This document shows, one piece after another, positions 4,585 through 21,778 of a stretch of 41,302 nucleotides of DNA. How positions within the stretch are numbered: position 1 is the first letter of the stretch; every line of letters begins with the position of its first letter. This DNA comes from Bacillota bacterium (GTDB taxonomy: Bacteria; Bacillota_I; Bacilli_A; RFN20; CAG-826), in the NCBI GenBank assembly GCA_023443485.1, contig JAEZUH010000005.1, positions 1 to 41,302 on the forward strand, read 5' to 3'. A program made the translations under genes and the position numbers. The notes under the pieces are model-generated. The model was not told where the DNA came from. It saw nothing but the letters and a program-made list of their open reading frames with translations, and made no database searches.

Positions 4585-4637
4585 ATTAATTTCCTCGTTA
4601 GTTATTTTATCAAAATAGTATATAATAATGTGTGATT

Positions 4638-5258
4638 ATGCTCACAGAAGATTTCAAGATAAAGACTTGCTTATTAGACTTGATTAAAGACTCAGAAAAG
4701 AAATTTTTCCGCTTTGAAAATTTCTCTCGTGGTCAAATTATATTTCACGAAAATGAAGAATGTCAGGAACTTGGTCTAATCATAAAAGGAGAGGTAGTTA
4801 TCTCTTCTTATACCTACCATGGTGAAGAAATTGTTTATAACCTCTTAAAAGAAAATGATGTCTTTGGAAATAATCTCATATTCTCGAGTGACCCCCATTA
4901 TCGAGGAAACATTATAGTTAATAAACCTTCAAAAGTTGCCTTTATTACGCGCCAGTCTTTGCTAACTTTATTAAGACAAAATGAGTCATTTTTGACTTCG
5001 TATTTACAAGTCCAATCTGACTTTGGTAAACGCTTGAATGCAACGATCAAATTGCTCTCATTTTCTACCGCGGAAGAAAGGTTTCTTTATTACCTTTTTT
5101 TGAATAACAATCGCCTCAATTTCTCCAATGTCACTTCTTTAGCAAAAGAGGTCTTTTTGAAGAGAGAAACGCTTTCTCGCTTGCTGAGCAAACTAACTAA
5201 AGATAAAAAAATTAATCGTTATCGAAATTTAATTATTTATAATGAAAAAAGCCGCTAA
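4638..5258 (+). CDS. Crp/Fnr family transcriptional regulator
   Basis: N-terminal cNMP-binding-like beta-roll (F--GQIIFHENEECQELGLIIKGEV) and a C-terminal Crp-type HTH (LAKEVFLKRETLSRLLSKLTKDKKI). GTG 4632 is an alternative start. It is divergent from the ABC genes. Confidence 0.75.
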   Translation: MLTEDFKIKTCLLDLIKDSEKKFFRFENFSRGQIIFHENEECQELGLIIKGEVVISSYTYHGEEIVYNLLKENDVFGNNLIFSSDPHYRGNIIVNKPSKVAFITRQSLLTLLRQNESFLTSYLQVQSDFGKRLNATIKLLSFSTAEERFLYYLFLNNNRLNFSNVTSLAKEVFLKRETLSRLLSKLTKDKKINRYRNLIIYNEKSR

Positions 5259-5288
5259 AAAGCGACTATTTTCTTTAAAATTGCTCTA

Positions 5289-5471
5289 TTATTTTATTTT
5301 ATATTTCTTCCGATAAGCTTTTAGCAATTTTTTCTTGTTTTCTAAAAGTGTGCAAGAAGAGCAATCTCCCGTTGGTTTATGTTTGATTTTTTTATAAAGC
5401 CAAGTGCCAAAAACACCACCCACAATTGCGATGCAAAAAATGATGACAAGCAACTCCAAAAATAGGTCCAT
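5289..5471 (-). CDS. FeoB-associated Cys-rich membrane protein
   Basis: 60-aa product MDLFLELLVIIFCIAIVGGVFGTWLYKKIK...GDCSSC: one TM helix followed by a Cys cluster. Its ATG (5471) lies directly after the feoB stop (5473-5475). The track's longer 98-aa version overlaps feoB and is rejected. Confidence 0.7.
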   Translation of the reverse strand: MDLFLELLVIIFCIAIVGGVFGTWLYKKIKHKPTGDCSSCTLLENKKKLLKAYRKKYKIK

Positions 5472-5472
5472 A

Positions 5473-7728: not shown

Positions 7729-7967
7729 ATTTTCTTCACCCCCATTTCACAAACAATGAATTGGGCTTCTGTTTTTCTTAGTGTTAATTCATAACCACGT
7801 ACATGTATTTCAAGAGGGTCTCCAAAAGGAGCTTTTTTTCTTAAATATATTTCGGCTCCTGGAGTGATTCCCATGTCAAAAAGGCGACGACGGATTTTGC
7901 CTTCGCCAAGGACATTAATTACGATTCCATATTCGCCGATTGCGAAATCATTTAGTTTTTTTTGCAT
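7725..7967 (-). CDS. feoA: ferrous iron transport protein FeoA
   Basis: Small SH3-like FeoA signature (G--G-I--V-G-----RRL-DMGI-PG--I-------FGDP). ATG 7967 is preceded by AAGGAGAA. The track's 8000 extension is unsupported. Confidence 0.9.
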   Translation of the reverse strand: MQKKLNDFAIGEYGIVINVLGEGKIRRRLFDMGITPGAEIYLRKKAPFGDPLEIHVRGYELTLRKTEAQFIVCEMGVKKI

Positions 7968-8134
7968 ATCCGTTCTCCTTATATACTTATTAGGTGGCAA
8001 CCTTTAATACTGATTTGTCGTTTCTTTTATCTAGTTAGAGGGGACTAACTTTATATGTTATACAATGTTGATATGACATAAGTCAAGCATAAAGTTTGTT
8101 AGAACTAACCAAGCATGTTAAAATTACTCCGCAT

Positions 8135-10342
8135 ATGAAAAAGAAGCACAAATTTTTAGTTAAAGGGATGACCTGCAGCGCTTGCCAAGCTCATGTCGAA
8201 CACTCGGTAAATAAAATTCATGGAGTAGATAATGTTGTTGTTAATTTAATCAGCAATACTTTGGAATACGAAAGTGATGTTGTGAGCGATAAAACAATCA
8301 TGAATGCCGTCAAACGGGCCGGTTATCAAGCAGTGCCATTTCAAAAAATTGATTATCGAACTCAAGAGAAAAACAAAGGTAAATCTTTGATAATTTCTTT
8401 AGTCCTGTTAGTTTTCTTACTCTACGTTGCAATGGGCCCTATGATTAATCTACCACTCCCACCTTTCTTAACTGATGCGCATGGTGGCATGTATCTCTCT
8501 ATCGCTCAATTTATATTATTAATCCCCATCGTCATATTGAATTTTCGCTATTTCACAAGTGGCTTTAACAAATTATTCCGTTTAAAACCAAACATGGATT
8601 CTCTTGTCGCTCTTGGTTCAACCGCCTCAATTCTATATTCCATCTACTCTTCAGTAATGATTATTATTTCAACGACAAGAAATCAGCCTGAAATGGTCCA
8701 TCATTTTCTCGAACAATTATATTTTGATGGTGCCGGCACAATTCTCACCCTTGTTTCATTAGGAAAATACATCGAATTTAAATCGAAACGTAAAACAAGC
8801 AACGCAATAAGCGATCTATTAAAGCTACAAGGCGACACCGCCATTATTGTTAAAGGCGAGAAAGAAATGATTATTGATATTAAAGATATTCAAGTGGGAG
8901 ACACCATCAAATTGATGGCTGGATATAACGCTCCAGTCGATGGAATAATTAAACAAGGCCATGGTAGTTTCAATGAATCCTCGCTCACTGGAGAAAGTCT
9001 CCCTGTTTTTCATCAAGAAGGTGACAATATCTTGAGTGGTGTGACAAATCTAGATGGATTTATTTTATATGAGGCGACTTCTACATCCGCTAATTCAACT
9101 ATTGCGAGAATTGTAGAAATGGTCAGCGAAGCCTCTTCTTCAAAGGCTCCAATTGCTAAAGTGGTTGATAAAGTGAGTTTAATCTTTGTCCCCATCGTTT
9201 TAGGATTATCATTAATCACCCTTGTTGTGTGGTGGATTTTCTCAAAAAGTTTTGAGCAAGCAATTAGCTTTGCTATCCCAGTTTTAGTAATATCTTGTCC
9301 TTGTGCTCTTGGCTTAGCGACTCCAATTGCGATTATGATATCTACCGGAATGGCGGCCAAAAATCACATTTTAATTCATAATGCGGAAGCTCTTGAAAAT
9401 CTCAGCAAAATTAAAACCATTGTTATGGATAAAACCGGAACCTTGACCAAAGGAGATTTAATGGTTACTCAATTCGTGAGTTTTAATAATCGATTTGCCC
9501 CTTTGCTATATGGTATGGAAAAAGCTTCCTCCCACCCATTAGCTAAAGCAATCATTCGACATTCTGAAGAAGAACTAATCCCTATCGTTAAATTTGATGA
9601 AGTGATTACTGTTCCTGGAAAAGGATTAAAAGGTAAATACCAAAATCAAACACTTTATGCCGGTAATGCTGCATATATCAAAGAAGCAACAGGTCTAGAC
9701 TTTAACTATGAGACTAGCCATTCTTCTTGTGTAATTCTCGCAAGCGAGAAAGAAATATTGGGATATGTTTTGATTAACGATTCTGTCAAAGATTCGAGCA
9801 TTCAAGCGATTAAAGCCTTTCAAAAAGAAGGGATAAAAACCGTGATGTTGACAGGCGACAATAAAGAAAACGCCCACGAGATGAATAAGCTACTTCATAT
9901 TGATGAGATAATTGCCGAAGTTTTACCCGATCAAAAAGCGGATATCATCCGCTCTTATCAAAAAGACGGCATGACTTTAATGGTGGGGGATGGCATCAAT
10001 GATGCTGTCGCTTTAGAAGTCGCTGATGTATCTATGGCAATTGGAGCGGGCAGTGATATCGCAATCAAATCTTCTGATCTGGTTTTGGTTAAAGATGATT
10101 TATTTGATGCCTATCGAGCCTATAAATTGAGTAAAAGAACAATGCGCAATATCAAAATGAATCTCTTCTGGGCCTTTTTCTATAATGTGGTTTCAATCCC
10201 AATAGCGATGGGTGCTTTATATCCAAGTTTCCAAATTTCCCTCGACCCTATGATTGCTGCGTTAGCCATGACTTTCAGCAGTGTCTTTGTCGTTTTGAGC
10301 GCTTCTACCCTCTTCATTGAGAAAAAAGCAAAGAAATCATAG
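8135..10342 (+). CDS. copA: copper(I)-translocating P1B-1-type ATPase (CopA-like)
   Basis: One N-terminal HMA domain (GMTCSACQAHVE). P-type motifs TGES, DKTGTLT and GDGINDAVAL are present. TM6 CPC (SCPCALGLATP), TM7 YN (FFYNVVSIP) and TM8 M-x-x-SS (AMTFSSV) form the Cu(I) signature. ATG 8135 (MKKKHKFLVKG) is preferred to TTG 8096. Confidence 0.9.
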   Translation: MKKKHKFLVKGMTCSACQAHVEHSVNKIHGVDNVVVNLISNTLEYESDVVSDKTIMNAVKRAGYQAVPFQKIDYRTQEKNKGKSLIISLVLLVFLLYVAMGPMINLPLPPFLTDAHGGMYLSIAQFILLIPIVILNFRYFTSGFNKLFRLKPNMDSLVALGSTASILYSIYSSVMIIISTTRNQPEMVHHFLEQLYFDGAGTILTLVSLGKYIEFKSKRKTSNAISDLLKLQGDTAIIVKGEKEMIIDIKDIQVGDTIKLMAGYNAPVDGIIKQGHGSFNESSLTGESLPVFHQEGDNILSGVTNLDGFILYEATSTSANSTIARIVEMVSEASSSKAPIAKVVDKVSLIFVPIVLGLSLITLVVWWIFSKSFEQAISFAIPVLVISCPCALGLATPIAIMISTGMAAKNHILIHNAEALENLSKIKTIVMDKTGTLTKGDLMVTQFVSFNNRFAPLLYGMEKASSHPLAKAIIRHSEEELIPIVKFDEVITVPGKGLKGKYQNQTLYAGNAAYIKEATGLDFNYETSHSSCVILASEKEILGYVLINDSVKDSSIQAIKAFQKEGIKTVMLTGDNKENAHEMNKLLHIDEIIAEVLPDQKADIIRSYQKDGMTLMVGDGINDAVALEVADVSMAIGAGSDIAIKSSDLVLVKDDLFDAYRAYKLSKRTMRNIKMNLFWAFFYNVVSIPIAMGALYPSFQISLDPMIAALAMTFSSVFVVLSASTLFIEKKAKKS

Positions 10343-10392
10343 GAGTACATTTTGTTAGTTCGTGATAAACTGAAAAAAATGGAATAACTATT

Positions 10393-11202
10393 ATGCACGA
10401 TCCAATTCTTATATCAATAATTGCGATATCTTTGATTTTTGTATCAACCACTCTTGGAGCTGGATTGGTCTTCTTCTTTAAAAAAGACCTGACTCCCAAG
10501 ATTCGTTCGATTATCTTAGGTTTTGCTGGAGGAATCATGATTTCCGTCGCATTCTTTGGACTCATTCTTCCCGCAATTTCAGAAAGCCATAAATATTATG
10601 CTGACTGGGCTTTTTTGCCACCTTTAGCTGGCTTTATCTTTGGTGGGTTACTATTATTTGCTTTAGATAAAATTATCCCTCACTTTCACAAGTTAACCAA
10701 CACTGAAGAAGGTTTGCCAAATCGAGCTATTAGCCAAAACATACGTTTCTTTCTCGCTGTTACTATTCATAACATTCCCGAAGGTCTATCGGTTGGTTTT
10801 GCTTGTGGCCTTGCTATCGCTTTAAGAGCCGATCCTGTATTAGCGGCTGCCGCTAGTGCTTCTGCCCTATCACTTGCTATAGGTATTTCTGTACAAAACA
10901 TCCCCGAAGGTGCGGCAATATCTATTCCCATGTTTGGGGATGGAATGAAAAAGTGGAAAGCTTTTTTGTTCGGTGCTTTTTCCGGATTGGTGGAACCAAT
11001 ATTCGCTATTGCAGCTTTATTCTTGGCCCAACTAGTGGTGGTTACACCTTGGTTGTTGGCTTTAGCAGCCGGAGCTATGCTCTATGTCACTCTTGATGAA
11101 ATTATGCCTGAAGCCAGACAAAATGGTTATTCCCATTATTCGATGTGGTCATTCATGATTGGTTTTGTCCTCATGATGGCAATGGAAGTCGCGATTGTTT
11201 AA
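10393..11202 (+). CDS. ZIP family divalent-metal transporter (ZupT-like)
   Basis: Polytopic protein with duplicated HNIPEGLSVG / QNIPEGAAIS motifs characteristic of the ZIP/ZupT metal-binding helices. Confidence 0.85.
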   Translation: MHDPILISIIAISLIFVSTTLGAGLVFFFKKDLTPKIRSIILGFAGGIMISVAFFGLILPAISESHKYYADWAFLPPLAGFIFGGLLLFALDKIIPHFHKLTNTEEGLPNRAISQNIRFFLAVTIHNIPEGLSVGFACGLAIALRADPVLAAAASASALSLAIGISVQNIPEGAAISIPMFGDGMKKWKAFLFGAFSGLVEPIFAIAALFLAQLVVVTPWLLALAAGAMLYVTLDEIMPEARQNGYSHYSMWSFMIGFVLMMAMEVAIV

Positions 11203-11218
11203 AAAGAGGTAAAAATTT

Positions 11219-11479
11219 ATGAACAAAATTATTTTAAAAGTCGAAGGAATGAGTTGTGGAATGTGCGAAGCACATGTCAACGATGCAGTACGAAAAATTA
11301 AAGGTGTCAAAAAAGTTAACGCCGACCGCACAAAAGGCGAAGTAATCGTCATCGGTCAAGATGATACTGAAATCAAAGATATCAAAGATGCAATTTCTCA
11401 ACTGGGTTATCGCGTGATTTCTGAACACAACGAACCATACGAAGAAAAGAGTTTCTTTGATTTTTTACGCAAAAAATAA
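11219..11479 (+). CDS. heavy-metal-associated (HMA) domain metallochaperone, CopZ-like
   Basis: 86 aa with GMSCGMCEAHV (MxCxxC) and a ferredoxin-like HMA pattern. It lies 16 nt after the ZIP gene. Confidence 0.8.
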   Translation: MNKIILKVEGMSCGMCEAHVNDAVRKIKGVKKVNADRTKGEVIVIGQDDTEIKDIKDAISQLGYRVISEHNEPYEEKSFFDFLRKK

Positions 11480-11543
11480 GCGTTTTGATTTCTAAAAACG
11501 TTATTCTCAACCAATAAATACTTTTTATGCTTTGTTAATTACA

Positions 11544-11573
11544 TTGTAATAACAGAACTATTTTTAATATAAT
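11544..11573 (+). promoter_or_regulatory. candidate sigma-A promoter (TTGTAA-18-TATAAT) for the 11600 ORF
   Basis: -35 TTGTAA at 11544-11549 and -10 TATAAT at 11568-11573. SD GAGGAG lies just upstream of ATG 11600. Confidence 0.35.
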
Positions 11574-11599
11574 ATTGTATAAATACTTGAGGAGTAAAG

Positions 11600-12265
11600 A
11601 TGGCGTTTGAAAGAAGAGAAGGCAATATCGGAGGAAACATAACTAGATATGCAGATAGGCATTTAACAAAATGTCCTTACTGCAAAGCTATTCATCCTCT
11701 TTGGTTGAGCGATGCGAAACCAATTAAAATTGAGGGAGAAAACGACTCAATTTCTTTTCAATTTAAGTGTCATCGTTGCAATGGAATCATCGAGTATGTT
11801 AGCGAAAGCGAAAAAGCTTTTGAAATAAATGACGAATTCAAGAGCATTAAAATGATTGATCCAGGTCGTGGCACCAACAATCTCAACCTCCTAAACGTTT
11901 CTTTGTCTCCTGACCAAATATACGCGCTTATTAACAATTTTGGGGTGACGACAACCAGTCAACACGTCTCCGGAGCTGAGTACTCAAAAACCAAAGATTC
12001 AAAAGTTCAAAATGATCCTCGAAAAACTCACGCCTTAATTGGTATGATTCTTGGCATTTTTGGATTGGCTTCTTGCTTTTTCTATGGTACTGGTGTTCTT
12101 TATTGTATTCCTGGATTAGTGCTTTCTATTATGGGTTTAAAGAGCACAAAAAATCACGGCAAAGCCGTTGCTGGTTTAACAACTTCTATTATTGGACTGG
12201 CTTTGGTTGGATTAGCTATTATTCTAGGGGCTTTAACCTGGCTGCCAATACTCATTTTCTTTTAG
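11600..12265 (+). CDS. hypothetical membrane protein: N-terminal CxxC...CxxC zinc-ribbon-like region plus C-terminal DUF4190-like glycine-rich TM helices
   Basis: CPYC (residues about 25-28) and CHRC (about 57-60) suggest a zinc ribbon. The C-terminus (ALIGMILGIFGLASCFFYGTGVLYCIPGLVLSIMGL...AGLTTSIIGLALVGLAIILG) resembles DUF4190-type helices. Confidence 0.5.
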   Translation: MAFERREGNIGGNITRYADRHLTKCPYCKAIHPLWLSDAKPIKIEGENDSISFQFKCHRCNGIIEYVSESEKAFEINDEFKSIKMIDPGRGTNNLNLLNVSLSPDQIYALINNFGVTTTSQHVSGAEYSKTKDSKVQNDPRKTHALIGMILGIFGLASCFFYGTGVLYCIPGLVLSIMGLKSTKNHGKAVAGLTTSIIGLALVGLAIILGALTWLPILIFF

Positions 12266-12328
12266 AAGAAGATTAATATTAAAAGACAATTTCTGATTAT
12301 ATGTTATCTTCCTTTTACCATTTTTTGA

Positions 12329-12337
12329 TGGTATACT
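12329..12337 (+). promoter_or_regulatory. extended -10 promoter element (TGgTATACT) upstream of wzx
   Basis: TG at 12329-12330, one spacer nt, then TATACT at 12332-12337. GGAG SD lies at about 12351, before ATG 12362. Confidence 0.35.
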
Positions 12338-12361
12338 TTGTTCTATTGTTGGAGAAAAAAT

Positions 12362-13792
12362 ATGGAAAAAGGCTCGATAAATTGGCAAAGAATACTTCCA
12401 ATACTATTATCTGCTTTGTCAGCTGGTTTATCATTATTGACCACTTTTTTTATAGCCAGACCTTTAGGCGCCGAAGAATTTGGAAAAGTCCAGTTTTATG
12501 TTGGCGTCATTCAAGTTCTTAGTATTGCTACCGCTCTTGGTCTCCCTGATTTCTTAACAAAGAATGCACAATTTGCGCAGAATAAGAAAGCGTTTTTTTC
12601 CAAGTATTTTTTACTTGTTTGCTGCTGGAGCATCATAATTTTTCCTATTTTCTTTTCTATCTCTTATTTTTTCCTGCACTCATTTGAGAGAAACATCATT
12701 TTAATTGTAGCAACTGGCTTAGCTTCTTTCGCTCAATGTGTTTGCATGCTGATTGGCGGTTTTTTCCTGGGAATTTTTAAACAAACCAAAGCCATTCTTT
12801 TTGAAAACTTACTCCCTAAACTTGTATTTTTTCTTTTTGCTCTTACTTTGATAGTGGTTTTTTCAATTAGAGAAGGATTCTCAACATATTATGTCTATGG
12901 TTTTTTGGCGATTTACGGAACCACCACTTTAATTTTTATTTTTTCACTTGTCCGTAGGTCATCTTTTAAATTTACCAAGAAAGAGGTCATTTCGATTCTT
13001 TCATTTTTTGCTTTGAGCGCGACATATGGTTTTAACACCGCTTTAGGAAAAATCATTGGTTCAGAATACTATAATTCCTTTTCAGGCGTTGGTGCTTATT
13101 CATTAAGTGCTCAAATTGCATTATTGGCCACACTTTTTACCGAGGTAATCAATTCAATGTCCAAGCCAGTTTTTTCATCTCTGGCTAAGGATAAAAACAA
13201 ATTAATAAATTATTTTCAGAAAATAACGCGAGTTAACAGTTACATTGTAATTCCTTTTTGCATGGGGATTATTGTTCAATCAGAAACATTGTTGTCATTG
13301 TTTGGCGAGTCCTACGCGCCTTTTTTTATGATACTAGTCATTATGGGTTTGGGGACTTTGCTAACTAGTATTACTGGCCCTAATGGCAACATGCTGGCAA
13401 TGGCGGGGCACGAGAAACTAGAAGTAGTAAATGGTATCATCAATATTGTGATTTTTTTAATTGCATCATTTAGTTTTGTTTTCCTTGGCAGTTTGGGATT
13501 AGCTCTCGCTACTTTTGTTTCTCTTGTTACAGTGAAAATAATTAAGCTAATTGAGATGTGGGTGGTATATAAAACAAATCCTTTCCCATGGAAGCTCCTT
13601 GAACATATTCTTATTTTAATTGTCGCTTCTTTGGTGGTTTTTAGCATTGTTAACCGCATTCCAAATATTTACATCAAACTCGGAGTTGATTGCGTGGTTG
13701 GAATAACATTAATTGTCCTGAATTTTGTCATCAATCCTTATAAAGATGACAAATACTTTTTCAGTAACAGAGATAAAATAGATAGTCATTAA
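12362..13792 (+). CDS. wzx: oligosaccharide/polysaccharide flippase (Wzx, MOP superfamily)
   Basis: About 476 aa with about 12-14 hydrophobic helices and the N-terminal pattern typical of PST-family flippases (ILPILLSALSAGLSLLTTFFIARPLGAEEFG). ATG 12362 has a GGAG SD, so the track's 12338 start is rejected. Confidence 0.7.
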   Translation: MEKGSINWQRILPILLSALSAGLSLLTTFFIARPLGAEEFGKVQFYVGVIQVLSIATALGLPDFLTKNAQFAQNKKAFFSKYFLLVCCWSIIIFPIFFSISYFFLHSFERNIILIVATGLASFAQCVCMLIGGFFLGIFKQTKAILFENLLPKLVFFLFALTLIVVFSIREGFSTYYVYGFLAIYGTTTLIFIFSLVRRSSFKFTKKEVISILSFFALSATYGFNTALGKIIGSEYYNSFSGVGAYSLSAQIALLATLFTEVINSMSKPVFSSLAKDKNKLINYFQKITRVNSYIVIPFCMGIIVQSETLLSLFGESYAPFFMILVIMGLGTLLTSITGPNGNMLAMAGHEKLEVVNGIINIVIFLIASFSFVFLGSLGLALATFVSLVTVKIIKLIEMWVVYKTNPFPWKLLEHILILIVASLVVFSIVNRIPNIYIKLGVDCVVGITLIVLNFVINPYKDDKYFFSNRDKIDSH

Positions 13793-14437
13793 CAGTAAAA
13801 ACAGGATTCTTTCTGTGCTTTTTTGATCTTCTATAACGCTTCATCATTTTTATTTTTTTGTCTAATTAACCAAACTTATAAAATAGTTTTCTTCCACTAT
13901 TGACCCTAGAAAGCAAAACTTTGATATTTTTGATCTTGGATAATCAAATTGTAAAAGGCCACAAGTCTTTTTGGTCTTTGTATTACTCATCAAAAATATA
14001 GTTTATGAGAACATGGTTTGACTATTGTCTAAATTTAGATTTAACTCTCGCAGTTGAACTAAGAGTTGCAATATCAGTAGAACTTTAATCAATCGACAAT
14101 ACAAAACCTAATAATCTAGATTACTTTCCCCAATTTGTTTAATAGGAACAACTTTTCCTAGTCGGTCAATTGGCTATAAAAGTATTTTTTTGGAGAAGTT
14201 AATAAGCAAAAAATAAGTAAGAGGCCAAATAATAAAAAATGAGCAATTCAAAAGCGATAATTATTGCTAATTGAATGATTGAAAAAACATGCTTTTTTAA
14301 TAAAATTCAAAAAATAGTTACGTTTTGTTGACGGCAAAATGAAAGTGATAAACCTGCAACATTTAAAATAATACCTAATGTTTTTAAGAATATTAAGGTT
14401 CTTAAATAGAAAATGTTTTAACTAAAAGATTGTATTG

Positions 14438-14466
14438 TTGCAAATTTAATAAATGTTAAAATAATA
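14438..14466 (+). promoter_or_regulatory. candidate promoter TTGCAA-17-ATAATA for the REC/HK module
   Basis: -35 at 14438-14443, a 17-nt spacer, and -10 at 14461-14466. SD AAAGGGG follows at 14467-14473, before ATG 14482. Confidence 0.3.
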
Positions 14467-14481
14467 AAGGGGAAAATTCAT

Positions 14482-15186
14482 ATGTGCTGCTTTTTCAATT
14501 ATTCATGCATTAAGAAATTTCAAACTCTTGATGATATAAAATCAAAAAAATTGGGTAACGATCTAAACATTCCAAAAGAAAAAATAAAAATATGCATAAT
14601 TGATGACGAGTCATTTCCTTGTGACTCATTAAAAAGACTTGGGTTTTCGAACATTACTGTTCTTGAAGATTGTCCAAACGATATTAACGAATTATCCGAA
14701 TTTAATATTGTTCTTGTTGATGTGAGAGGTGTCGCTACAAAAATCAATCAAAAAGAACAAGGCCTTGCTTATGCAAAAACACTGAAAAGGGAGTTCCCTT
14801 TTATCCATGTTTTGCTTTACACTGCAATTCAACCAAAAATTTTGGGTGATGTTCCAGATAGTATTCCTGTCATTTATAAGAGCATTCCTTATGATCAAAT
14901 AGCTTTAAAACTTGACGAAATTAGAAAACAAATAAGTGATCCCAAATATTTATGGGGTGTCATTGAGTCCTATTTACTTGAAAATGGGTATTCTCATAGA
15001 GATTTGGCAATTGTGGAAGACATTTATTGTAAGTCTATTTCAAATAAAATAGACTACAAAGAAATACAAAGCAAGTTCGCCGGAATTTCATTCATGAAAA
15101 AAAGCAAAGAAACAACAAAGTTTTTATCAAGATGTTCTTATTTACTAGGTGCATTAATAGCTGGCTATGTTGAGTATAATAACTGA
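14482..15186 (+). CDS. receiver (CheY-like REC) domain protein with an uncharacterised C-terminal helical domain and no DNA-binding output
   Basis: REC landmarks are spaced as in CheY: acidic pair D41-D42 (KICIIDDE), candidate phospho-acceptor D80 (NIVLVDV; codon gat 14719-14721), T114 (VLLYTA) and K133 (VIYKSIP). Residues about 150-234 match nothing I recognise and end in a hydrophobic helix (YLLGALIAGYV). A good SD is present. Confidence 0.55.
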   Translation: MCCFFNYSCIKKFQTLDDIKSKKLGNDLNIPKEKIKICIIDDESFPCDSLKRLGFSNITVLEDCPNDINELSEFNIVLVDVRGVATKINQKEQGLAYAKTLKREFPFIHVLLYTAIQPKILGDVPDSIPVIYKSIPYDQIALKLDEIRKQISDPKYLWGVIESYLLENGYSHRDLAIVEDIYCKSISNKIDYKEIQSKFAGISFMKKSKETTKFLSRCSYLLGALIAGYVEYNN

Positions 15187-16435
15187 TCCCCTATTATTGA
15201 AAGAAAAATTGGGTAATTCCGAAAATATATCGGAATTTTACTCTTTTTTTTCTTGTGCTTTTTGCAAGTCACATATAGCAAAAAATGATTCAAAGTGTTT
15301 GTCTTTTATGAAATTCATTATTAATTCCTCTGGAGAAAAAATCGAACAATGTCCATATGGATATTATGTTTATAAAGATTATTTTTCGAGTTTTTTTATT
15401 AATGGCATTGTTAGCGACAAATGTAATATACCGACTTTAAAATATAGATCAAGGCATATATATAAAGAAAAATTCATTGTCCATAATCATGAAATTTTGT
15501 TCGAAAAAATTAAAACATATGTCCAGTGCCAATATCTTTTTGACACTATTAATTTAATTACCCATGATATCGGAGGTGCTTTGAAATACCTCAATAATCT
15601 TGCCGCCATACAAAAAGATAAATATATCAACAATAATAGCAAAGTGAAATGTTTATTATTTTACAATAATATTTCTGAAAAAATTACATATCTTCTCGAG
15701 AAATATAAAGAAAAAATATCATTTGATATTGCGACTGACTATAAAAAAATCTTTGCTGACCTACAAGAATCAATTCGAGCAGTAAAAAACATAATTATAG
15801 TTGGAGAAAATAATGCAAAAACAATAAGAGAAAATTTAAACAAAAAACATGACGAAGCATATAAATATTGTCCAGAGTACACCTGTTTTGAAGGTTTTTC
15901 GCTTTTACTTTCGCTTTTAAAACGAGACATTATTACATATTCTTCCAGCACTTATAAACAAAAGATTAAAGATTTAAAAGTATATGGAATGATCGAGAAA
16001 ATCAAACGAATAACAACCAAAAAAGCTGAAATTTCTAAAGTGTCAATTGAATCAATTAAATGCGACTGCAAAAGTAAAACAATTAAAACCATTGATGAAG
16101 TTTATCTTGCTGTTTTTACCATTATTGATAATGCAATTAAATACTGCAAAAAACATGACAAGATTTTCATTTCAGTACAAGATTTAGGCGATGATTTTGT
16201 GGTGGTTAATGTTTCAAACAAGAGCGATTTTTTAAGCAAAGAAGATGTCAACAGAGTGTTTGATATGGGTTATCGAGGAACAAACGGAAACGGAAAAGAT
16301 GGGAGTGGACTGGGTCTTTTTCTTGTCCAAAAGATAATGAACTCTGCTAATTCTTATGTTGGTGCTAACTATGATTCCGCTTCTTCTATTTTTACTATTT
16401 CAATGAAAATTAGAAATATTAGAAATATCAAATGA
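15167..16435 (+). CDS. soluble histidine-kinase-like ATPase (HATPase_c) with a Cys-rich N-terminal sensor region
   Basis: No TM helix. N-terminal cysteines are C30-x2-C33, C44 and C62 (FSCAFCKSH...KC...EQCPYGYYVY), which is tentatively PocR-like. Candidate H-box is LITHDIGGALKYL (H133). N-box is FTIIDNAIKYC. The F/G2 region is VFDMGYRG-x8-GSGLGLFLVQKIM. The start overlaps the upstream ORF by 20 nt. Confidence 0.65.
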   Translation: MLSIITDPLLLKEKLGNSENISEFYSFFSCAFCKSHIAKNDSKCLSFMKFIINSSGEKIEQCPYGYYVYKDYFSSFFINGIVSDKCNIPTLKYRSRHIYKEKFIVHNHEILFEKIKTYVQCQYLFDTINLITHDIGGALKYLNNLAAIQKDKYINNNSKVKCLLFYNNISEKITYLLEKYKEKISFDIATDYKKIFADLQESIRAVKNIIIVGENNAKTIRENLNKKHDEAYKYCPEYTCFEGFSLLLSLLKRDIITYSSSTYKQKIKDLKVYGMIEKIKRITTKKAEISKVSIESIKCDCKSKTIKTIDEVYLAVFTIIDNAIKYCKKHDKIFISVQDLGDDFVVVNVSNKSDFLSKEDVNRVFDMGYRGTNGNGKDGSGLGLFLVQKIMNSANSYVGANYDSASSIFTISMKIRNIRNIK

Positions 16436-16464
16436 TTTTTATTCTTTTTCCTTTTTTTCTTCAT

Positions 16465-16698
16465 CTTTGTATTGCGCTTTTCTTGGCAAAGAGGAACTAG
16501 AAAGTCGTCATCATCGATGTTAATTATGCCAAAGCAGAAGGCAAAGATTTAGATGTGAATCACGCGATGAACTTTTTCCAAAGAAATCAAAACTGTCACT
16601 ATGAAGATACCAAATGGCCACATTATTGTTATCACCGTTGAGGAGGCTAAAATTGGGAGAAACTAGATTTCGACTCCGCAATATTGTTTTTCGTTTTC
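16465..16698 (+). pseudogene. 5'- and 3'-truncated, frameshifted L-lactate dehydrogenase fragment
   Basis: Reads CIALFLAKRN*KVVIIDVNYAKAEGKDLDVNHAMNFF...YED..HIIVIT..GETR, with in-frame stops and at least 2 frameshifts. It is colinear with residues about 20-100 of the intact ldh at 20825. A hand alignment gives 53 of 64 identical nt between 16507-16570 and 20927-20990. Confidence 0.75.
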
Positions 16699-17835
16699 TT
16701 ATTTTTTGCTTTTATAATCATAGATTTGTTGAAGAATTTTTTTGAGTTTCATTATTGTTCTTTTTATCAAAGAAGGTTTCAAAATCGACAACACTTTTCT
16801 AGGTTTATAATTTTTGAAAGCATTTTTGCGAGTTAAAGGAAGCGGAGATGGCTGTACAACACGCGGATTATTTTCGAGAACTGTTTCTAAATCGCTTTCT
16901 TTTAAAAAGGACAGATTATCTTTAATTCTATTGAAAAAACTTAAGCCTTTATCTGTTTTAATAATTATTGCCGATACTCCGTCTTTACTCTCTTTTAAAG
17001 AACTATCTAGAACAGTAGAAGCTCCCCAGAAGTCGCCGATGGTAATATCGCTTCCGCTTCTAAAATTATTGCTTGGGCATCTGTAACAGGATGGACGAAA
17101 AGTATCATTTCCAAAGGTGATGTAAGAACTCTCAAATATCTCTTTGCCGTTCGCAAATCGAATCTTTAATTTTTGTCCATCAGCTTCCTTTGAGCGAAAA
17201 TCAATAAAAGAAATTTTACTCTTATGCTTTTTTTCTACAGCTTTTTTGAAATCTGAAAATAACATTGGCGAAGGAACACCAGCACAAAAAATATCTACTG
17301 CTAACAAGTTTGGATAATCTTTTTTCAAAAATAGACCAAGACCATGAATTTGACAAGGAGTCCCACTAAATAAAACTTGTTTTCCAGCAATTAATTCGCT
17401 TTTAACTTCTTTGAAAACCAAATTAATTCGGCTTTGAACATACTTAGATTTTTTAAAGGCTCCAACGCCATCATAAGTATCTGCTTTTTCGTGATTTACT
17501 ACAAAATCTTCATTAAATTTTGCTCCGAATACAACGCCATTATTTTTGATTACTTCATTTGCTAGGAGTGCAAAAGCCCCACCGGAAGAGCTGGCCATTA
17601 ACAATTCTTTGTTCTGAACGATAGCGCCATAAAACTTTATTGGCTTGGTTTTTTTTGACTTTTGAATAAAGGGACAGACACTCTCACAAAGGCCACAATT
17701 AATGCACTTATTCAAATCTACAGAAGGATAATAGTACCCCTCATTATCTGGTTTCATCGAAATTGCCTTTGTTGGACAAATGTTAAAACAAGCTTCACAG
17801 CCGCAGCATTTTTGTTTATCAGTAATATTAATCAT
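16699..17835 (-). CDS. FrhB/FdhB-like (coenzyme F420 hydrogenase beta-subunit family) flavo-iron-sulfur protein with 2x[4Fe-4S] ferredoxin motifs
   Basis: The N-terminus has CCGCEACFNICP and CINCGLCESVCP (two CxxCxxCxxxCP motifs). The rest has the length and pattern of the FrhB_FdhB N/C domains. It sits directly downstream of a pyruvyl transferase, a pairing commonly seen in glycan loci. Confidence 0.75.
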   Translation of the reverse strand: MINITDKQKCCGCEACFNICPTKAISMKPDNEGYYYPSVDLNKCINCGLCESVCPFIQKSKKTKPIKFYGAIVQNKELLMASSSGGAFALLANEVIKNNGVVFGAKFNEDFVVNHEKADTYDGVGAFKKSKYVQSRINLVFKEVKSELIAGKQVLFSGTPCQIHGLGLFLKKDYPNLLAVDIFCAGVPSPMLFSDFKKAVEKKHKSKISFIDFRSKEADGQKLKIRFANGKEIFESSYITFGNDTFRPSCYRCPSNNFRSGSDITIGDFWGASTVLDSSLKESKDGVSAIIIKTDKGLSFFNRIKDNLSFLKESDLETVLENNPRVVQPSPLPLTRKNAFKNYKPRKVLSILKPSLIKRTIMKLKKILQQIYDYKSKK

Positions 17836-17846
17836 TTAACTAATCC

Positions 17847-19001
17847 TTAATTCTTTCCAAATGATTTCAAGTAACTGAAAGCTTTCTCTTTCTCTTTCTC
17901 AATAATACTTTTCACAGGAGAATAATCGATATCAGAAAAATCAAAGTCATCAAAATCATCGGCATTATAAATAAGACGATTCTCAAAATTTGTTAATTTC
18001 AATAGTCCGGTTATCCTTGAACCACGAGTGGGGTGCGGGAATGCGATAAAATTCTTTTCAAAAATAATTGATAAAGCAACACCATGGAATGAACTAGAAA
18101 TTGAGTAAGCTGCATTGTTTAAAAGGCCAAGAAAAGAGCTTGGAGAACAATTTTGAAGCCAAAGTACGTTGTTTTTAAAGCCATTTCTATTAGAAAAACT
18201 AACAATATCTAAATGAAATTTTGTTGCCATCTTATTAGCAAAAGTAATTAGTTCTTGGGAAGGAACTAAATCATAGATGAAAATATACTTATTTTTAAGC
18301 TTCGGACTATCAGAAATCTTAAGCCATGAGCTTTTATCAAGCAAAAAAGTTGGGTCAATATGAACCTGAATATCCTCTCTTTTGGACAACTCAATCAGCT
18401 TATTTTTTTGTTTCTCTTCACGTATGGAAATACCATCAAAATCAGAAATAAGAGAAAAATCAATTGTTTCCATTTTTAAAGGTGCGACCGCTATGCTGGC
18501 AGCATATGAACATTTCTTTTGGTTTTTATTTGCGAAATTAAGCAGGTAAGCCTGTCCATCGGGTAAAATGAAATATGGATTCCAAACTTGGTCAGAGCCA
18601 GTTAAAAGAATATTGTAGTCTTTCGCAAAATGACGAATGTTGTCATCTGTGACAAAAATCTTTGAATCAACGTTTAAATATTGTTGTCTAAATTTGTCGA
18701 ATAGTTTTTTTCTTTTCTTGTTATTATTGTAACTATAAATTGAGGACAATATTTTATACATTCCACTTCGAAATCCAAGAGTACGCAATCTTTTGAAAGG
18801 ATGAATTCCATAGTCGTGATTATCGCGTTCCTTTTGTGTAAGAAAATTAATGAATTCAGGTTGATAGCCAAGACTTTTTAATGCTTCTTGCAAAGCATAG
18901 GCTTGAAGAACTGAACCAAAATTATCAGCATAATGCATCGTTAGAATACCGACTTTTTTGGGGAGTGACAAAGACTCAATTTCTTCGTTAGGTTTTAACA
19001 T
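17847..19001 (-). CDS. polysaccharide pyruvyl transferase family protein (CsaB/WcaK-like)
   Basis: N-terminus KVGILTMHYADNFGSVLQAYAL and the motif LLTGSDQVWNP are typical of PS_pyruv_trans. 384 aa. Confidence 0.8.
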   Translation of the reverse strand: MLKPNEEIESLSLPKKVGILTMHYADNFGSVLQAYALQEALKSLGYQPEFINFLTQKERDNHDYGIHPFKRLRTLGFRSGMYKILSSIYSYNNNKKRKKLFDKFRQQYLNVDSKIFVTDDNIRHFAKDYNILLTGSDQVWNPYFILPDGQAYLLNFANKNQKKCSYAASIAVAPLKMETIDFSLISDFDGISIREEKQKNKLIELSKREDIQVHIDPTFLLDKSSWLKISDSPKLKNKYIFIYDLVPSQELITFANKMATKFHLDIVSFSNRNGFKNNVLWLQNCSPSSFLGLLNNAAYSISSSFHGVALSIIFEKNFIAFPHPTRGSRITGLLKLTNFENRLIYNADDFDDFDFSDIDYSPVKSIIEKEKEKAFSYLKSFGKN

Positions 19002-19098
19002 ATTTAGATTATAACATAATCTTAAAAAAACTAAAGATTATAAAAAGTCGGAATCTTGAGCCGAACCCCATTTAGTAAACAACAAAAAGATTAGCACT

Positions 19099-19130
19099 TC
19101 TTATCACATAAAAGCGATAAGAGGTTTTTT
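19099..19130 (+). terminator. orphan terminator-like hairpin with T-tract
   Basis: TCTTATC (19099-19105) / GATAAGA (19116-19122) with a 10-nt loop, then TTTTTT (19125-19130). No plus-strand gene lies upstream. It abuts the IS-remnant region. Confidence 0.3.
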
Positions 19131-19420
19131 GTGTCGGAAAAAGGAAACCCATTTCAAAAGCATAGACATTGAGCGGAAGTTAAAATACCTTAAAATCATG
19201 TTTGTGGCAAATATTCTTATGCTTCACATGGCGCAAAATTCGGTGTCTTAGGAAATAATCAATTTAGAATTGGCTTCTAAAAACGAAAAAAGACTTTAAT
19301 GTGGTCATCAATTAGCAGAATTTGCCACCTGGCAAAAAGCCAACAAAGACATTAACTAAGGAAGATTATAAACAGAGATATGAAATCCTCAAAAAAACTT
19401 TGCACAAAAATAGTATATTT
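19131..19420 (+). mobile_element. decayed IS3/IS150-type transposase OrfA remnant (HTH/leucine-zipper part only)
   Basis: Pieces spread over three frames (DIERKLKYLKIM, AKFGVLGNNQFRIGF, PPGKKPTKTLTKEDYKQRYEILKK) resemble the N-terminal OrfA of IS3-family elements. They are broken by several stops and frameshifts. No DDE OrfB and no inverted repeats were identified. Confidence 0.35.
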
Positions 19421-19580
19421 TTAGAACAGTACATTAAATATGTTGAGGAATGGGCAGGCTTTTATTATATGCCGCGAATAAAAAAGAACCGTAAACGATT
19501 TCTATTTTAATGGCTTTTTTTGCTGAAGCATTCATCTTGGAGGACACTTTATGAACTTACTTTTATTGCAAATTACATAT

Positions 19581-20189
19581 TTATTTACCCTTGATTCTCA
19601 AGAGAGTCATAAGGAATAATTTTGCATCAAGCCAGAAATCAACTGTCCTAGCGTATTCGGAATCATAACGCGCTTTTTCTTTTGGATCATGATCACGATT
19701 CATTTTTACTTGGGCTAATCCAGAAATGCCTGGTTTAACATCGAAAGCAGATGGAGTGTACGATTCTCTTAATCTAATTAATTCTTCTTCGTTTTTTGCA
19801 GCGCCTGGTCTTGGACCTACAAATGACATCGTTCCACCTAATACGTTGATAAGTTGAACTGTTTCATCAATGGAGAATTTTCTCAAGAAGTTTCCAAACT
19901 TATATTCCATGGCCTTTTGTTGCTCTTCGGTCATATCACTAGGAGCGATTTGAGGCGCATCTGCTCTCATTGTTCTAAATTTGTAAATTTTGAAAACTTT
20001 TTTGTGCTTGCCCACTCTTTCTTGTCTAAACAAGACCGGACCCTTTGAAGTGAGTTTAATGAGTATTGCTACCCACCACCAAATCAGTAGTGAACAAACG
20101 ATAATTCCGAATAAAGATCCACAAATATCGATCAATCTTTTCCAGAAGAAATAGAATTTTTGGCTTTTCTTAAATTTATAGTTTTCCAT
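19581..20189 (-). CDS. small monotopic phosphoglycosyl transferase (bacterial sugar transferase family, PglC/WbaP C-terminal-domain type), initiating enzyme
   Basis: 202 aa. One N-terminal reentrant helix (FGIIVCSLLIWWWVAILI) is followed by GPVLFRQERVGK, YKFRTM, VGPRP and SGLAQV motifs characteristic of Bac_transf. Confidence 0.85.
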   Translation of the reverse strand: MENYKFKKSQKFYFFWKRLIDICGSLFGIIVCSLLIWWWVAILIKLTSKGPVLFRQERVGKHKKVFKIYKFRTMRADAPQIAPSDMTEEQQKAMEYKFGNFLRKFSIDETVQLINVLGGTMSFVGPRPGAAKNEEELIRLRESYTPSAFDVKPGISGLAQVKMNRDHDPKEKARYDSEYARTVDFWLDAKLFLMTLLRIKGK

Positions 20190-20291
20190 AAGATAACGCC
20201 TAATATCATACCAAAGTAAAATAAAAAAGCAAAAGTTTCTTTCTCAATGCCTTAATATTGATTAAAAAGATTCCATCAGATGAGAAATTAA

Positions 20292-20702
20292 CTATTCAAT
20301 ATGTTGTTCGCCAATTTCGCTGATGGATAGTATTTTTACATATTGAGCGTCGCTAAAGTCTTTTTGCCCTCGCATGTATTTTTCTTTGAGGTTATAAAAA
20401 CATATTCTCAAATAATCATCATTTTGATAGATGAAAAAAGGCTTATCGATATTGGCTTTGATTCCCTTAAAGTAGCTATCATAATTGCCATAATTAATAC
20501 GATAACCCCGTTTTTTCATTTCTTCTAAGACCATGTTTGAATAGGATAGTAGATCTTTTCTATCTTTATATTCATCTTTATAAATATAATTTATAAGAAT
20601 GTGATTCGGTTCCTGTCTAAAAATTAAATTCAGCTCTCGCCACTGGGCTAAAAGTTGAGATCTAGGAAGATGTTGTATTAACTTATAATGCCAAAGTCTC
20701 AT
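20292..20702 (-). CDS. T4 endonuclease V (DenV)-like pyrimidine-dimer DNA glycosylase family protein (TIGR02328-type)
   Basis: The N-terminus MRLWHYKLIQHLPRSQLLAQWRELNLIF parallels the EndoV N-terminal helix. A Glu at position 23 (WRE) matches the catalytic E23 of T4 EndoV. 136 aa. Confidence 0.55.
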   Translation of the reverse strand: MRLWHYKLIQHLPRSQLLAQWRELNLIFRQEPNHILINYIYKDEYKDRKDLLSYSNMVLEEMKKRGYRINYGNYDSYFKGIKANIDKPFFIYQNDDYLRICFYNLKEKYMRGQKDFSDAQYVKILSISEIGEQHIE

Positions 20703-20824
20703 ATCGATTAATTTATTTTTACCATCATTGACAAGAAGACGTCAATTCAAGCGCTCTTTTTTGAGTACATTACTTGTAGTGATGTTATGAAAAACATATC
20801 ATTACCATGTAGGGGGACTACAAT

Positions 20825-21778
20825 ATGAAAAACTTAAACAATCGAAAAGTTGTAATTATTGGAGATGGAATGGTTGGAAGCTCAATCGCTTATACCCTTC
20901 TTCTCAAATCAAATATCCAAGACATTGTCATCATTGATGTCAATAAAGACAAAGCCGAAGGTGATGCTTTAGATATGAATCACGCGATGAGTATGCTAGC
21001 TCCAAAAGACATCAAAGCCGGTTCATATGAAGATATTGAAGATGCTCACATTATCGTGATCACCGCTGGCGCTGCTCAAAAACCAGGAGAAACAAGACTT
21101 CAATTATGCTACAAGAACAAAGCTATCTTCGATAGCATATTTGCCATGATGAAACCGCATCTCAACCCAGAAAGCATAGTTATGATAGTGACAAATCCTG
21201 TTGATATTTTGACTCACTATGCTTTTACTAAATTGGGACTACCGGCCAATCAAGTTATTGGTTCAGGTACTGTCTTGGATACTGCAAGATTAAAATTCTT
21301 GCTTAGTGAGGACACCAAAATTGACCCACGAAATATTCATACTTATGTCATAGGAGAACACGGTGATAGTGAAGTAATGGCCTATTCGGTTACTTACATC
21401 GCTGGAGTGCCAATTGCTGACTTCTGTACAGTCTGTGGAAGATGCAAGAACTTGCATCACTTGAAAAAGTTAGAAGAGATTGGCAGAGAAGTTGTTACAT
21501 CAGCTTATAAAATCATTGAGAAAAAAGGCAGCACATATTATGGAATCGCCGCTGCGGTTGCTCGAATCATCGACGCAATTGTTAACGATACTGAAAGTGT
21601 CTTAACAGTCTCCTCTTATGTTGAGGATGCCCTTGAGGGAAAAATTAGAGATGTCTATCTCTCTGTTCCATCAATTGTTAACCAACATGGAGCTGTAAAG
21701 ACTGTATGGCCGGCATATAGCGAAAATGAAGCTGAATTGCTCATTCAATCAGCCAATAAGCTTAAACAGTTTTATTAA
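20825..21778 (+). CDS. ldh: L-lactate dehydrogenase
   Basis: KVVIIGDGMVGSS Rossmann motif, ITAGAAQKPGETRL, the substrate loop, catalytic IGEHGDS, and 317 aa. SD GGGGGA is present. Confidence 0.95.
   Translation: MKNLNNRKVVIIGDGMVGSSIAYTLLLKSNIQDIVIIDVNKDKAEGDALDMNHAMSMLAPKDIKAGSYEDIEDAHIIVITAGAAQKPGETRLQLCYKNKAIFDSIFAMMKPHLNPESIVMIVTNPVDILTHYAFTKLGLPANQVIGSGTVLDTARLKFLLSEDTKIDPRNIHTYVIGEHGDSEVMAYSVTYIAGVPIADFCTVCGRCKNLHHLKKLEEIGREVVTSAYKIIEKKGSTYYGIAAAVARIIDAIVNDTESVLTVSSYVEDALEGKIRDVYLSVPSIVNQHGAVKTVWPAYSENEAELLIQSANKLKQFY

Follow-up and report, generated by a model that had tools for sequence, protein, structure and literature searches.

A mobile receiver and histidine kinase gene pair from a Bacillota genome as a tentative candidate for phosphorelay-based phage defence

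A 41,302-nucleotide stretch of DNA from a Bacillota bacterium (GTDB lineage Bacteria; Bacillota_I; Bacilli_A; RFN20; CAG-826; assembly GCA_023443485.1, contig JAEZUH010000005.1, positions 1 to 41,302), hereafter the window, carries a pair of open reading frames (ORFs) on the same + strand that overlap by 20 nt and encode proteins of 234 and 422 residues (proteins 1 and 2, Table 1). Analysis of both proteins, of their relatives and of their genomic surroundings points to a self-contained and horizontally mobile phosphorelay, in which protein 2 is a predicted soluble histidine kinase and protein 1 its predicted receiver partner. The role that we consider most likely, with slightly less than even confidence, is defence against phages or other mobile elements by a mechanism of the abortive-infection type. 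An original prediction, made from the letters of the window without database searches, had described the pair as an orphan, undescribed signalling or defence module. As set out below, most of its reading of the two proteins has stood, whilst its view of the pair as solitary has not.

The presence in protein 1 of a true receiver domain, with a complete active site around the predicted phospho-acceptor D80 (codon 14719-14721), is strongly supported. The protein contains the landmarks of a CheY-like receiver, namely the acidic pair D41/D42, D80, T114 and K133-x-x-P136. These had been picked out in the original prediction and proved to be conserved when 133 homologues were aligned. D80 and G94 are invariant, D41, D42, G83, P106, K133, P154, W158 and E179 are conserved in at least 90% of the sequences and serine or threonine is the majority residue at position 114. 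Scans of protein 1 alone against Pfam and NCBIfam gave no match. The profile of its family matches response-regulator structures (3cu5_A, E = 2.3e-9, profile positions 33-153), and Pfam Response_reg is matched individually by 33 of 103 family members. An AlphaFold2 (AF2) model built from the family alignment has a predicted local distance difference test score (pLDDT) of 90 and a predicted template modelling score (pTM) of 0.85, and shows a (beta-alpha)5 receiver at residues 37-151 followed by five helices at 154-233. Foldseek searches with this model recovered receiver domains, with template modelling scores of 0.60-0.72 normalised to target length, and searches against a viral library returned receiver matches only.

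Downstream of the receiver lies a family-specific helical domain of about 80 residues. A non-transcriptional output for protein 1 is strongly supported, because Pfam, a PDB-sequence profile and Foldseek reveal neither a helix-turn-helix (HTH) nor any other domain here, as the first reading of the sequence had supposed. No HTH or winged-helix family of the OmpR, NarL/LuxR, LytTR or AraC types was matched by Pfam in 103 full-length or 50 C-terminal sequences. The profile of the 50 C-terminal segments found nothing in PDB sequences better than E = 1 and no meaningful Pfam match, and Foldseek, viral library included, gave no convincing match for this part of the protein. Nor was similarity to PNP, nucleases, hydrolases or any known toxin found by PDB-sequence profile or Pfam. 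Two further candidates were rejected: a degenerate LuxR-type HTH, prompted by the motif G-x-S-x-K-x-I-A, is without profile or fold support, and ANTAR or other RNA-binding outputs gave no matches. The best full-length Foldseek E-value (2.8e-5) was to PorX, which consists of a receiver, a helical bundle and a PglZ/alkaline-phosphatase domain. However, the root-mean-square deviation is about 16 Å over the full alignment, protein 1 has no PglZ/phosphatase domain and the similarity is driven by the receiver (REC) domain alone. The domain ends in a hydrophobic helix. Across the 133 family members the most hydrophobic 19-residue segment lies at a median of 2 residues from the C-terminus, with a median Kyte-Doolittle value of 1.43 compared with 0.81 for the most hydrophobic segment of the REC domain, and 37 members reach 1.6 or above. 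Since charged residues are interspersed along it, this helix may be amphipathic and not membrane-spanning.

That protein 2 is a class-I histidine kinase, predicted to be phosphorylated at H133, is strongly supported by profile and alignment. Pfam recognises HATPase_c at residues 311-399 (E = 4e-11). The kinase profile spans the DHp-CA core (~210 residues) of the solved kinases 7zp0_A (E = 3.7e-16), SrrB, HprS, BceS, VicK and HK853, and H133 falls on the phospho-accepting histidine of the H-box in 7zp0, SrrB and HprS. In an alignment of eight partner kinases H133, N322, A323, K325 and the G2 glycines are invariant. The family thus resembles class-I kinases such as HK853, SrrB, HprS and VicK in that the DHp helix with its phospho-histidine, the N-box, an F-box-like motif and G2 all align. 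It differs from them in that G1 is replaced, HisKA is undetected by Pfam (in protein 2 and in seven relatives), there is no transmembrane segment (the maximum 19-residue Kyte-Doolittle mean of protein 2 is 1.08) and the N-terminal domain is another one; the clade of the window also adds an insertion. At the G1 site the window kinase reads VSNKSDF (S-N, N351) in place of DxGxG. Replacement by S/E-N is family-wide, with the canonical DxGxG in one of 54 kinases and G2 in all 54, and an asparagine for the G1 aspartate might, speculatively, alter nucleotide preference. The soluble kinase with an H-box at H133, an N-box, G2 and a replaced G1 that had first been read from the window is therefore borne out by alignments and hydropathy. 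A Pfam Bromodomain match at residues 291-336 (16037-16174; 24.2 bits against a gathering threshold of 21.7) is almost certainly spurious; it overlaps the N-box helix and occurs in one of eight family kinases.

The distance from H133 to the N-box had been given as 189 residues and taken as a peculiarity of the system. The value is correct, but elsewhere in the family the spacing is 110-143 residues (median 117), and the longer spacing results from a clade-specific insertion of ~75 residues. This insertion is common to the window kinase and two further kinases (P0003 and P0004) and is missing from the kinases of loci L011, L014, L017, L019 and L020. The N-terminal input domain was likewise described as rich in cysteines, with a CxxC motif. 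That motif is not conserved, and the conserved cysteines are C33, C44 and C62. In 36 kinases of this type C33, C44, C62, P63 and G65 never vary, and the pattern reads F-C...K-C-x2-(F/H)-Y...C-P-Y-G. Yet 24 of 54 full-length partner kinases, apparently mostly proteobacterial (including those of L101, L071, L075, L093, L058, L037 and L038), are without the three-cysteine pattern and carry GW(S/H)xx(E/P)(F/L)GY in that place. Metal binding through cysteines can therefore not be indispensable for the family. A horizontally acquired sensor kinase with a non-transcriptional receiver partner, as originally proposed, holds, whereas a cysteine-rich sensor as a general trait does not. A profile of the N-terminal domain had no PDB-sequence match at E ≤ 10. 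The PocR sensor domain, put forward as worth checking, had no match at E ≤ 1 in Pfam scans of the window kinase and seven relatives, and other Pfam families likewise gave none for the N-terminal domain at this threshold. An AF2 model of the kinase from a three-sequence alignment was poor (pLDDT 52, with the N-terminal domain below 50).

The pair is not an orphan. An exhaustive HMMER search gave a receiver family of at least 372 representatives (50%-identity clusters) at E ≤ 1e-3, with 91 at E ≤ 1e-10, nearly all of 215-240 residues; a word-indexed homologue search with protein 1 returned only itself. Genome loci were located in GTDB representative genomes with a degenerate DNA pattern for the receiver motif Y-x-I-I-L-C-D-I-x-G-V-G. 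This gave 86 loci, 70 of which encode a receiver-family protein, and a locus search from the kinase alignment found nothing in genome or metagenome contigs. In 60 of the 70 a kinase gene lies immediately downstream on the same strand (gap -65 to +104 nt, mode -4), and the remaining 10 are mostly at contig ends. Protein 1 of the window is significantly similar to the receivers of all 60 pairs. Even the distant kinase homologue P0004 (26% identity) is preceded by a 232-aa gene that overlaps it by 4 nt and whose product is 33% identical to protein 1 (E = 2e-34). Overlapping genes and near-universal adjacency strongly support the view, drawn from gene order, that the pair forms an obligate, tightly coupled operon. 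One variant departs from this arrangement. At 10001-11245 of L016 a 414-aa protein (P0072) has the receiver fused in frame to the N-terminal half of the kinase, with its CPAGY motif and an H-box reading IHEVRAIN. It is without a HATPase domain, no kinase gene is nearby and the context is one of metabolic genes, as would fit a decayed or fused variant of the module.

Hosts of the pair include Bacillota, Bacteroidota, Alpha-, Beta- and Gammaproteobacteria, Planctomycetota, Leptospiraceae, Treponemataceae, Bdellovibrionota, Myxococcota, Patescibacteria and Gastranaerophilaceae. In the window the G+C content of the pair is 29.0%, compared with 34.9% in the rest of the sequence, the 11th lowest among 394 equal-sized windows. 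The pair is horizontally acquired and mobile between phyla, since its hosts span phyla, its neighbours are heterogeneous, its G+C content is low and a scar of an ldh gene lies adjacent. A tblastn search of protein 1 against plasmids gave no match. Against phages it gave a single match, on a contig of bacterial look (L017, GenBank MT838345.1, 7887 bp), and a phage origin of the pair was rejected, as just three IMG/VR contigs carry it. The L017 record, labelled 'Bacteriophage sp.', shows no obvious phage genes; besides the pair it encodes a GT8 glycosyltransferase, UDP-galactopyranose mutase and RmlC, and it would seem to be a bacterial fragment with the wrong label. Another viral record with the pair (L112, IMG/VR UViG_2740891861_000008) has the same length, 81,255 bp, as the Cereibacter ovatus contig NZ_OAOQ01000014.1 (L089), which also has the pair. 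The former probably represents that bacterial contig under a prophage call.

The genomic surroundings of the family were surveyed in a census that took in the genes up to two positions away from the 60 genome pairs, 175 in all. Families that recur among these neighbours are N6_Mtase, Methylase_S, HSDR_N, ResIII, SMC_N, AAA_21/OLD-TOPRIM, PLDc_2, nSTAND1, Phage_integrase and Resolvase. PADLOC, run on the same neighbours, reported type I methyltransferases (about five proteins), REase_I, Specificity_I, MADS genes and PbeA. At two loci (L035 and L105) the order is hsdM-hsdS-receiver-kinase-hsdR with all genes co-directional, which places the pair inside a type I restriction-modification (R-M) operon. 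At three others (L011-L013) the pair is carried as cargo by an integrative mobilizable element, where it comes straight after Phd/ParE and has AbiH nearby, and in L014 and L113 it sits beside serine recombinases. A close relative of the receiver (L115, 101-3169) is found directly downstream of an RVT_1 reverse transcriptase and PRTase-CE, in an order reminiscent of retron or DRT defence cassettes. The copy in the window is not embedded in a defence system and adjoins polysaccharide genes. The L011 contig was also seen to contain, at 3772-17188, two tandem integrative mobilizable elements, each with an integrase, a NikA-like protein, AAA_25 and a Mob_Pre relaxase; Phd/ParE and the pair belong to the first of these as cargo, and the AbiH gene is just upstream.

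Among known and catalogued defence systems, the pair finds its nearest counterpart in PDC-M43. In PADLOC the sole match of protein 1 is PDC-M43A (E = 2.7e-15) and that of protein 2 is PDC-M43B (E = 4.8e-14), and the same was true of the other pairs tested. PDC-M43 is the cassette CAS_00151, FAM_00604>>FAM_02649 (Payne et al., bioRxiv 10.1101/2024.01.29.577857), with the figure 72 listed beside it, taken here as an occurrence count, and is one of 145 candidates nominated by their embedding in BREX, DISARM or type I R-M (bioRxiv 10.1101/2024.01.29.577857). A literature search found it mentioned in no other paper. Both are two-gene cassettes, with a receiver-type A gene followed by a HATPase_c B gene, and members of the window family are embedded in type I R-M, the ground on which PDC-M43 was nominated. 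However, the A profiles stop right after the REC domain, without the C-terminal helical domain of the window family, and the B profiles have no match to the three-cysteine domain or the H-box region of the window kinase. Since nothing beyond the REC and HATPase cores is matched, the window family is best described, from these profile comparisons, as a distant relative of PDC-M43 with extra domains and not as a clean member. To call the module undescribed was accordingly an overstatement, the family being already distantly represented by a catalogued candidate.

Detocs, the system that the pair had been said to resemble without belonging to it, consists of three genes (DtcA/DtcB/DtcC) with recognised effectors, some of them transmembrane (Rousset et al., bioRxiv 10.1101/2023.01.24.525353), and shows that a phosphorelay can work as an abortive-infection defence (bioRxiv 10.1101/2023.01.24.525353). 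The two share a histidine kinase and a receiver protein in which something else takes the place of the C-terminal DNA-binding domain. In contrast to Detocs, the window module has two genes and no DtcB buffer receiver (no third receiver ORF lies in 13793-16698). It is also without a PNP, nuclease or hydrolase effector, and its sensor domain is a different one. The Detocs models in PADLOC gave no match to either protein at E ≤ 1, in agreement with the original distinction.

Within the window, the pair is inserted, with its low G+C content, at a rearranged junction of a polysaccharide locus (Table 1). The 20-nt overlap, the 689 nt of upstream non-coding DNA and the AT-richness of the region were all confirmed, down to a hand count of 15 G+C at 15601-15660, which a recount reproduced exactly. 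A Shine-Dalgarno-like AAAGGGG sits 8-14 nt ahead of the ATG of gene 1. Promoter-like sites in the leader show no enrichment over shuffled sequence, and an Rfam scan of 13000-21000, leader included, matched no family. The truncated ldh reported downstream of the pair is real. At just 48% identity to the intact ldh of the window (20825-21778), it is not a recent duplicate. The fragment lies outside the module and is a scar at the border of the AT-rich insert, which either records a rearrangement of some age or was itself co-transferred. An IS3-like remnant reported further downstream was not confirmed, as blastn of 18990-19600 against plasmids gave no match. The locus was found again in four other assemblies.

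Table 1. Features of the gene pair and its immediate flanks, in positions of the 41,302-nt window.
Feature	Position	Strand	Evidence or remark
Wzx-type flippase	12338-13792		Flanks the pair upstream
AT-rich non-coding leader (689 nt, 26% GC)	13793..14481	+	5' of the pair
Promoter-like site TTGAAA-16-TAAAAT	14279-14306	+	In the leader; assignment is a guess
Gene 1, 234-aa receiver-domain protein with helical output	14482..15186	+	ORF, family search, AF2, PADLOC
REC domain, residues 33-150	14578..14931	+	Conservation, PDB profile match, Foldseek
C-terminal helical domain, residues 154-234; five predicted helices; conserved P154, W158, E179	14941..15183	+	AF2 secondary structure
Terminal hydrophobic or amphipathic helix, residues 209-233	15106..15180	+	Hydropathy in 133 members
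Gene 2, 422-aa predicted soluble class-I histidine kinase	15167..16435	+	ORF; HATPase_c; profile against solved kinases
N-terminal input domain, ~105 aa, three conserved Cys	15167..15481	+	36 Cys-type kinases
Conserved Cys codons C33, C44, C62 (C-P-Y-G)	15263-15265, 15296-15298, 15350-15352	+	In the N-terminal domain
H133 codon, predicted phospho-acceptor, H-box I-T-H-D-I-G-G	15563..15565	+	Alignment
Clade-specific helical insertion, ~75 aa (about residues 144-222), after the H-box helix	15596..15832	+	Alignment
CA (HATPase_c) domain, residues 267-416	15965..16414	+	N-box N322, F-box-like VFDMGYRG, G2 G379-x-G381-x-G383 (GSGLGL)
Frameshifted ldh fragment (LDH residues ~34-85)	about 16504-16650	+	tblastn with the intact ldh of the window, E = 4e-8, 48% identity
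FrhB-like/4Fe-4S protein, polysaccharide pyruvyl transferase, Bac_transf sugar transferase		-	Flank the pair on the other side

Two other genes of the region were noted. A 221-aa ORF at 11600-12265 (+), 5' of the Wzx flippase gene, has a weak match to the zinc-binding Churchill family (E = 2.5e-4, under the Pfam cutoff). A Pyr_excise (pyrimidine-dimer DNA glycosylase) gene at 20292-20702 (-) lies between the polysaccharide sugar transferase gene and ldh; it is an odd neighbour in a glycan locus, and its position is another hint that the region is mosaic.

Defence is suggested by the spread of the pair across phyla, by its unrelated insertion sites, by its embedding in type I R-M operons and by integrative elements that carry it beside genes of toxin-antitoxin, Abi and retron-like kinds. 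The gene-2 kinase is predicted to hand phosphate from H133 to D80 of the gene-1 receiver. Speculatively, a cue linked to infection and sensed by the three-cysteine domain would shift the phosphorylation state of D80; this change might free or oligomerise the C-terminal helical domain, which would then act on a membrane or cellular target and arrest the cell. A more specific form of the proposal, that the pair is a new minimal two-component immune system built from a soluble kinase without G1, sensing by three cysteines (metal or Fe-S) and a receiver whose helical domain is itself the effector, for example through membrane disturbance, we regard as unlikely. Several observations weigh against a defensive role. 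The module contains no recognisable toxic or enzymatic effector, and the terminal helix of the window protein is only moderately hydrophobic (0.98, against the family median of 1.43), so that a membrane role is uncertain. The match to PDC-M43A covers residues 18-117 of 234 and positions 63-165 of a 203-position profile (about 50%), which is the REC core only, and that to PDC-M43B covers residues 309-402 of 422 and positions 225-319 of 347 (27% of the profile), the HATPase core only. Moreover, the window family and PDC-M43 are both still candidate systems. R-M genes lie within two genes of the pair at only about 5 of 60 loci and the pair is rare on viral contigs. Many of the neighbours in the census are unrelated housekeeping genes, which implies many insertion sites. 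The original suggestion of a defence candidate gains support from the PDC-M43 matches, R-M embedding, Phd/ParE with AbiH and retron-like neighbours.

A further point against defence is that, of the eight nearest independent loci whose flanks could be used, four (the window, L005, L017 and L020-L022) have the pair abutting a polysaccharide locus, and in two of these four the pair stands at the 5' end in the same reading direction. In the window it lies between the Wzx flippase gene and the pyruvyl-transferase/FrhB-like/Bac_transf operon. In L005 it is upstream of UDP-glucose dehydrogenase, Bac_transf and glycosyltransferase genes, in L017 it follows GT8, Glf and RmlC, and in L020-L022 it heads a complete co-directional locus of epimerases, glycosyltransferases, Wzy, LicD and Wzx. 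The pair could therefore, in this clade, signal to surface-polysaccharide production. The kinase would sense a redox- or metal-like cytoplasmic cue and the receiver helix, at the membrane, would modulate the initiating transferase or Wzx/Wzy by protein contact, and a membrane-directed helix would fit such contact with membrane enzymes. We consider this unlikely. The association is gone family-wide, with polysaccharide-type genes within 8 kb at just 2 of 70 genome loci when 24 probe proteins were used, and no glycan family reaches two members among the 175 neighbours. Equally close relatives are mobile-element cargo or lie next to retron-like genes, and in the window the pair does not head an operon but is inserted, with its lower G+C content, at a convergent junction where the ldh scar also lies. 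Polysaccharide loci are variable and prone to recombination, and the co-location may show only that such regions tolerate acquired DNA. The alternative named at the outset, regulation of the glycan genes nearby, fits these four loci and not the wider family; homologous pairs do co-occur, and they are not uniformly in polysaccharide loci. We conclude that the family probably functions autonomously, and that the glycan adjacency is either a clade-specific co-option or a permissive, recombination-prone site. The latter is favoured by the low G+C content and the ldh scar in the window.

A different possibility is that the pair is a general cytoplasmic two-component system for stress or for redox or metal sensing, in which the receiver acts on an unlinked target, as CheY and Spo0F do, with no specific role in defence or glycan production. 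The chemistry of kinase and receiver is complete by sequence, the three invariant cysteines of the input domain hint that it binds a metal or an Fe-S cluster, and unrelated housekeeping genes make up most of the 60-locus census. Patchy spread across phyla, low G+C content and carriage on integrative elements and in R-M operons are, however, typical of accessory mobile cargo, and a cysteine-based cue is not general when 24 of 54 partner kinases are without the three-cysteine pattern; this explanation seems to us rather unlikely. We think it improbable that the pair is a selfish module that serves mobile elements by addiction or stabilisation, in the manner of a toxin-antitoxin system, with the receiver as a latent toxin restrained by the balance of kinase and phosphatase activity. 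Its position directly beside Phd/ParE on an integrative mobilizable element, the recombinases adjoining it in L014 and L113 and the tight two-gene overlap, which resembles toxin-antitoxin organisation, would fit such a module. Against these, mobile-element genes within two genes are missing at most loci and no similarity to a known toxin was found; nor is addiction cleanly separable from abortive-infection defence.

If the pair is defensive, it would be only the second two-component immune system after Detocs, and a much simpler one with two genes. It would bring new input and output domains without structural or sequence relatives, present in many phyla including gut Bacillota and Bacteroidota, and would validate one of the 145 candidates nominated by "guilt-by-embedding". 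With its predicted switch residues D80 and H133 it would also offer a tractable system for how a phosphorelay senses phage. Were the membrane-effector form of the immune proposal true, this would be the first defence phosphorelay without an enzymatic effector. If instead the link to polysaccharide is functional, the pair would represent a new, non-transcriptional control of capsule synthesis in gut Gram-positives. Either way, the family would provide a testable context for two domains of unknown function.

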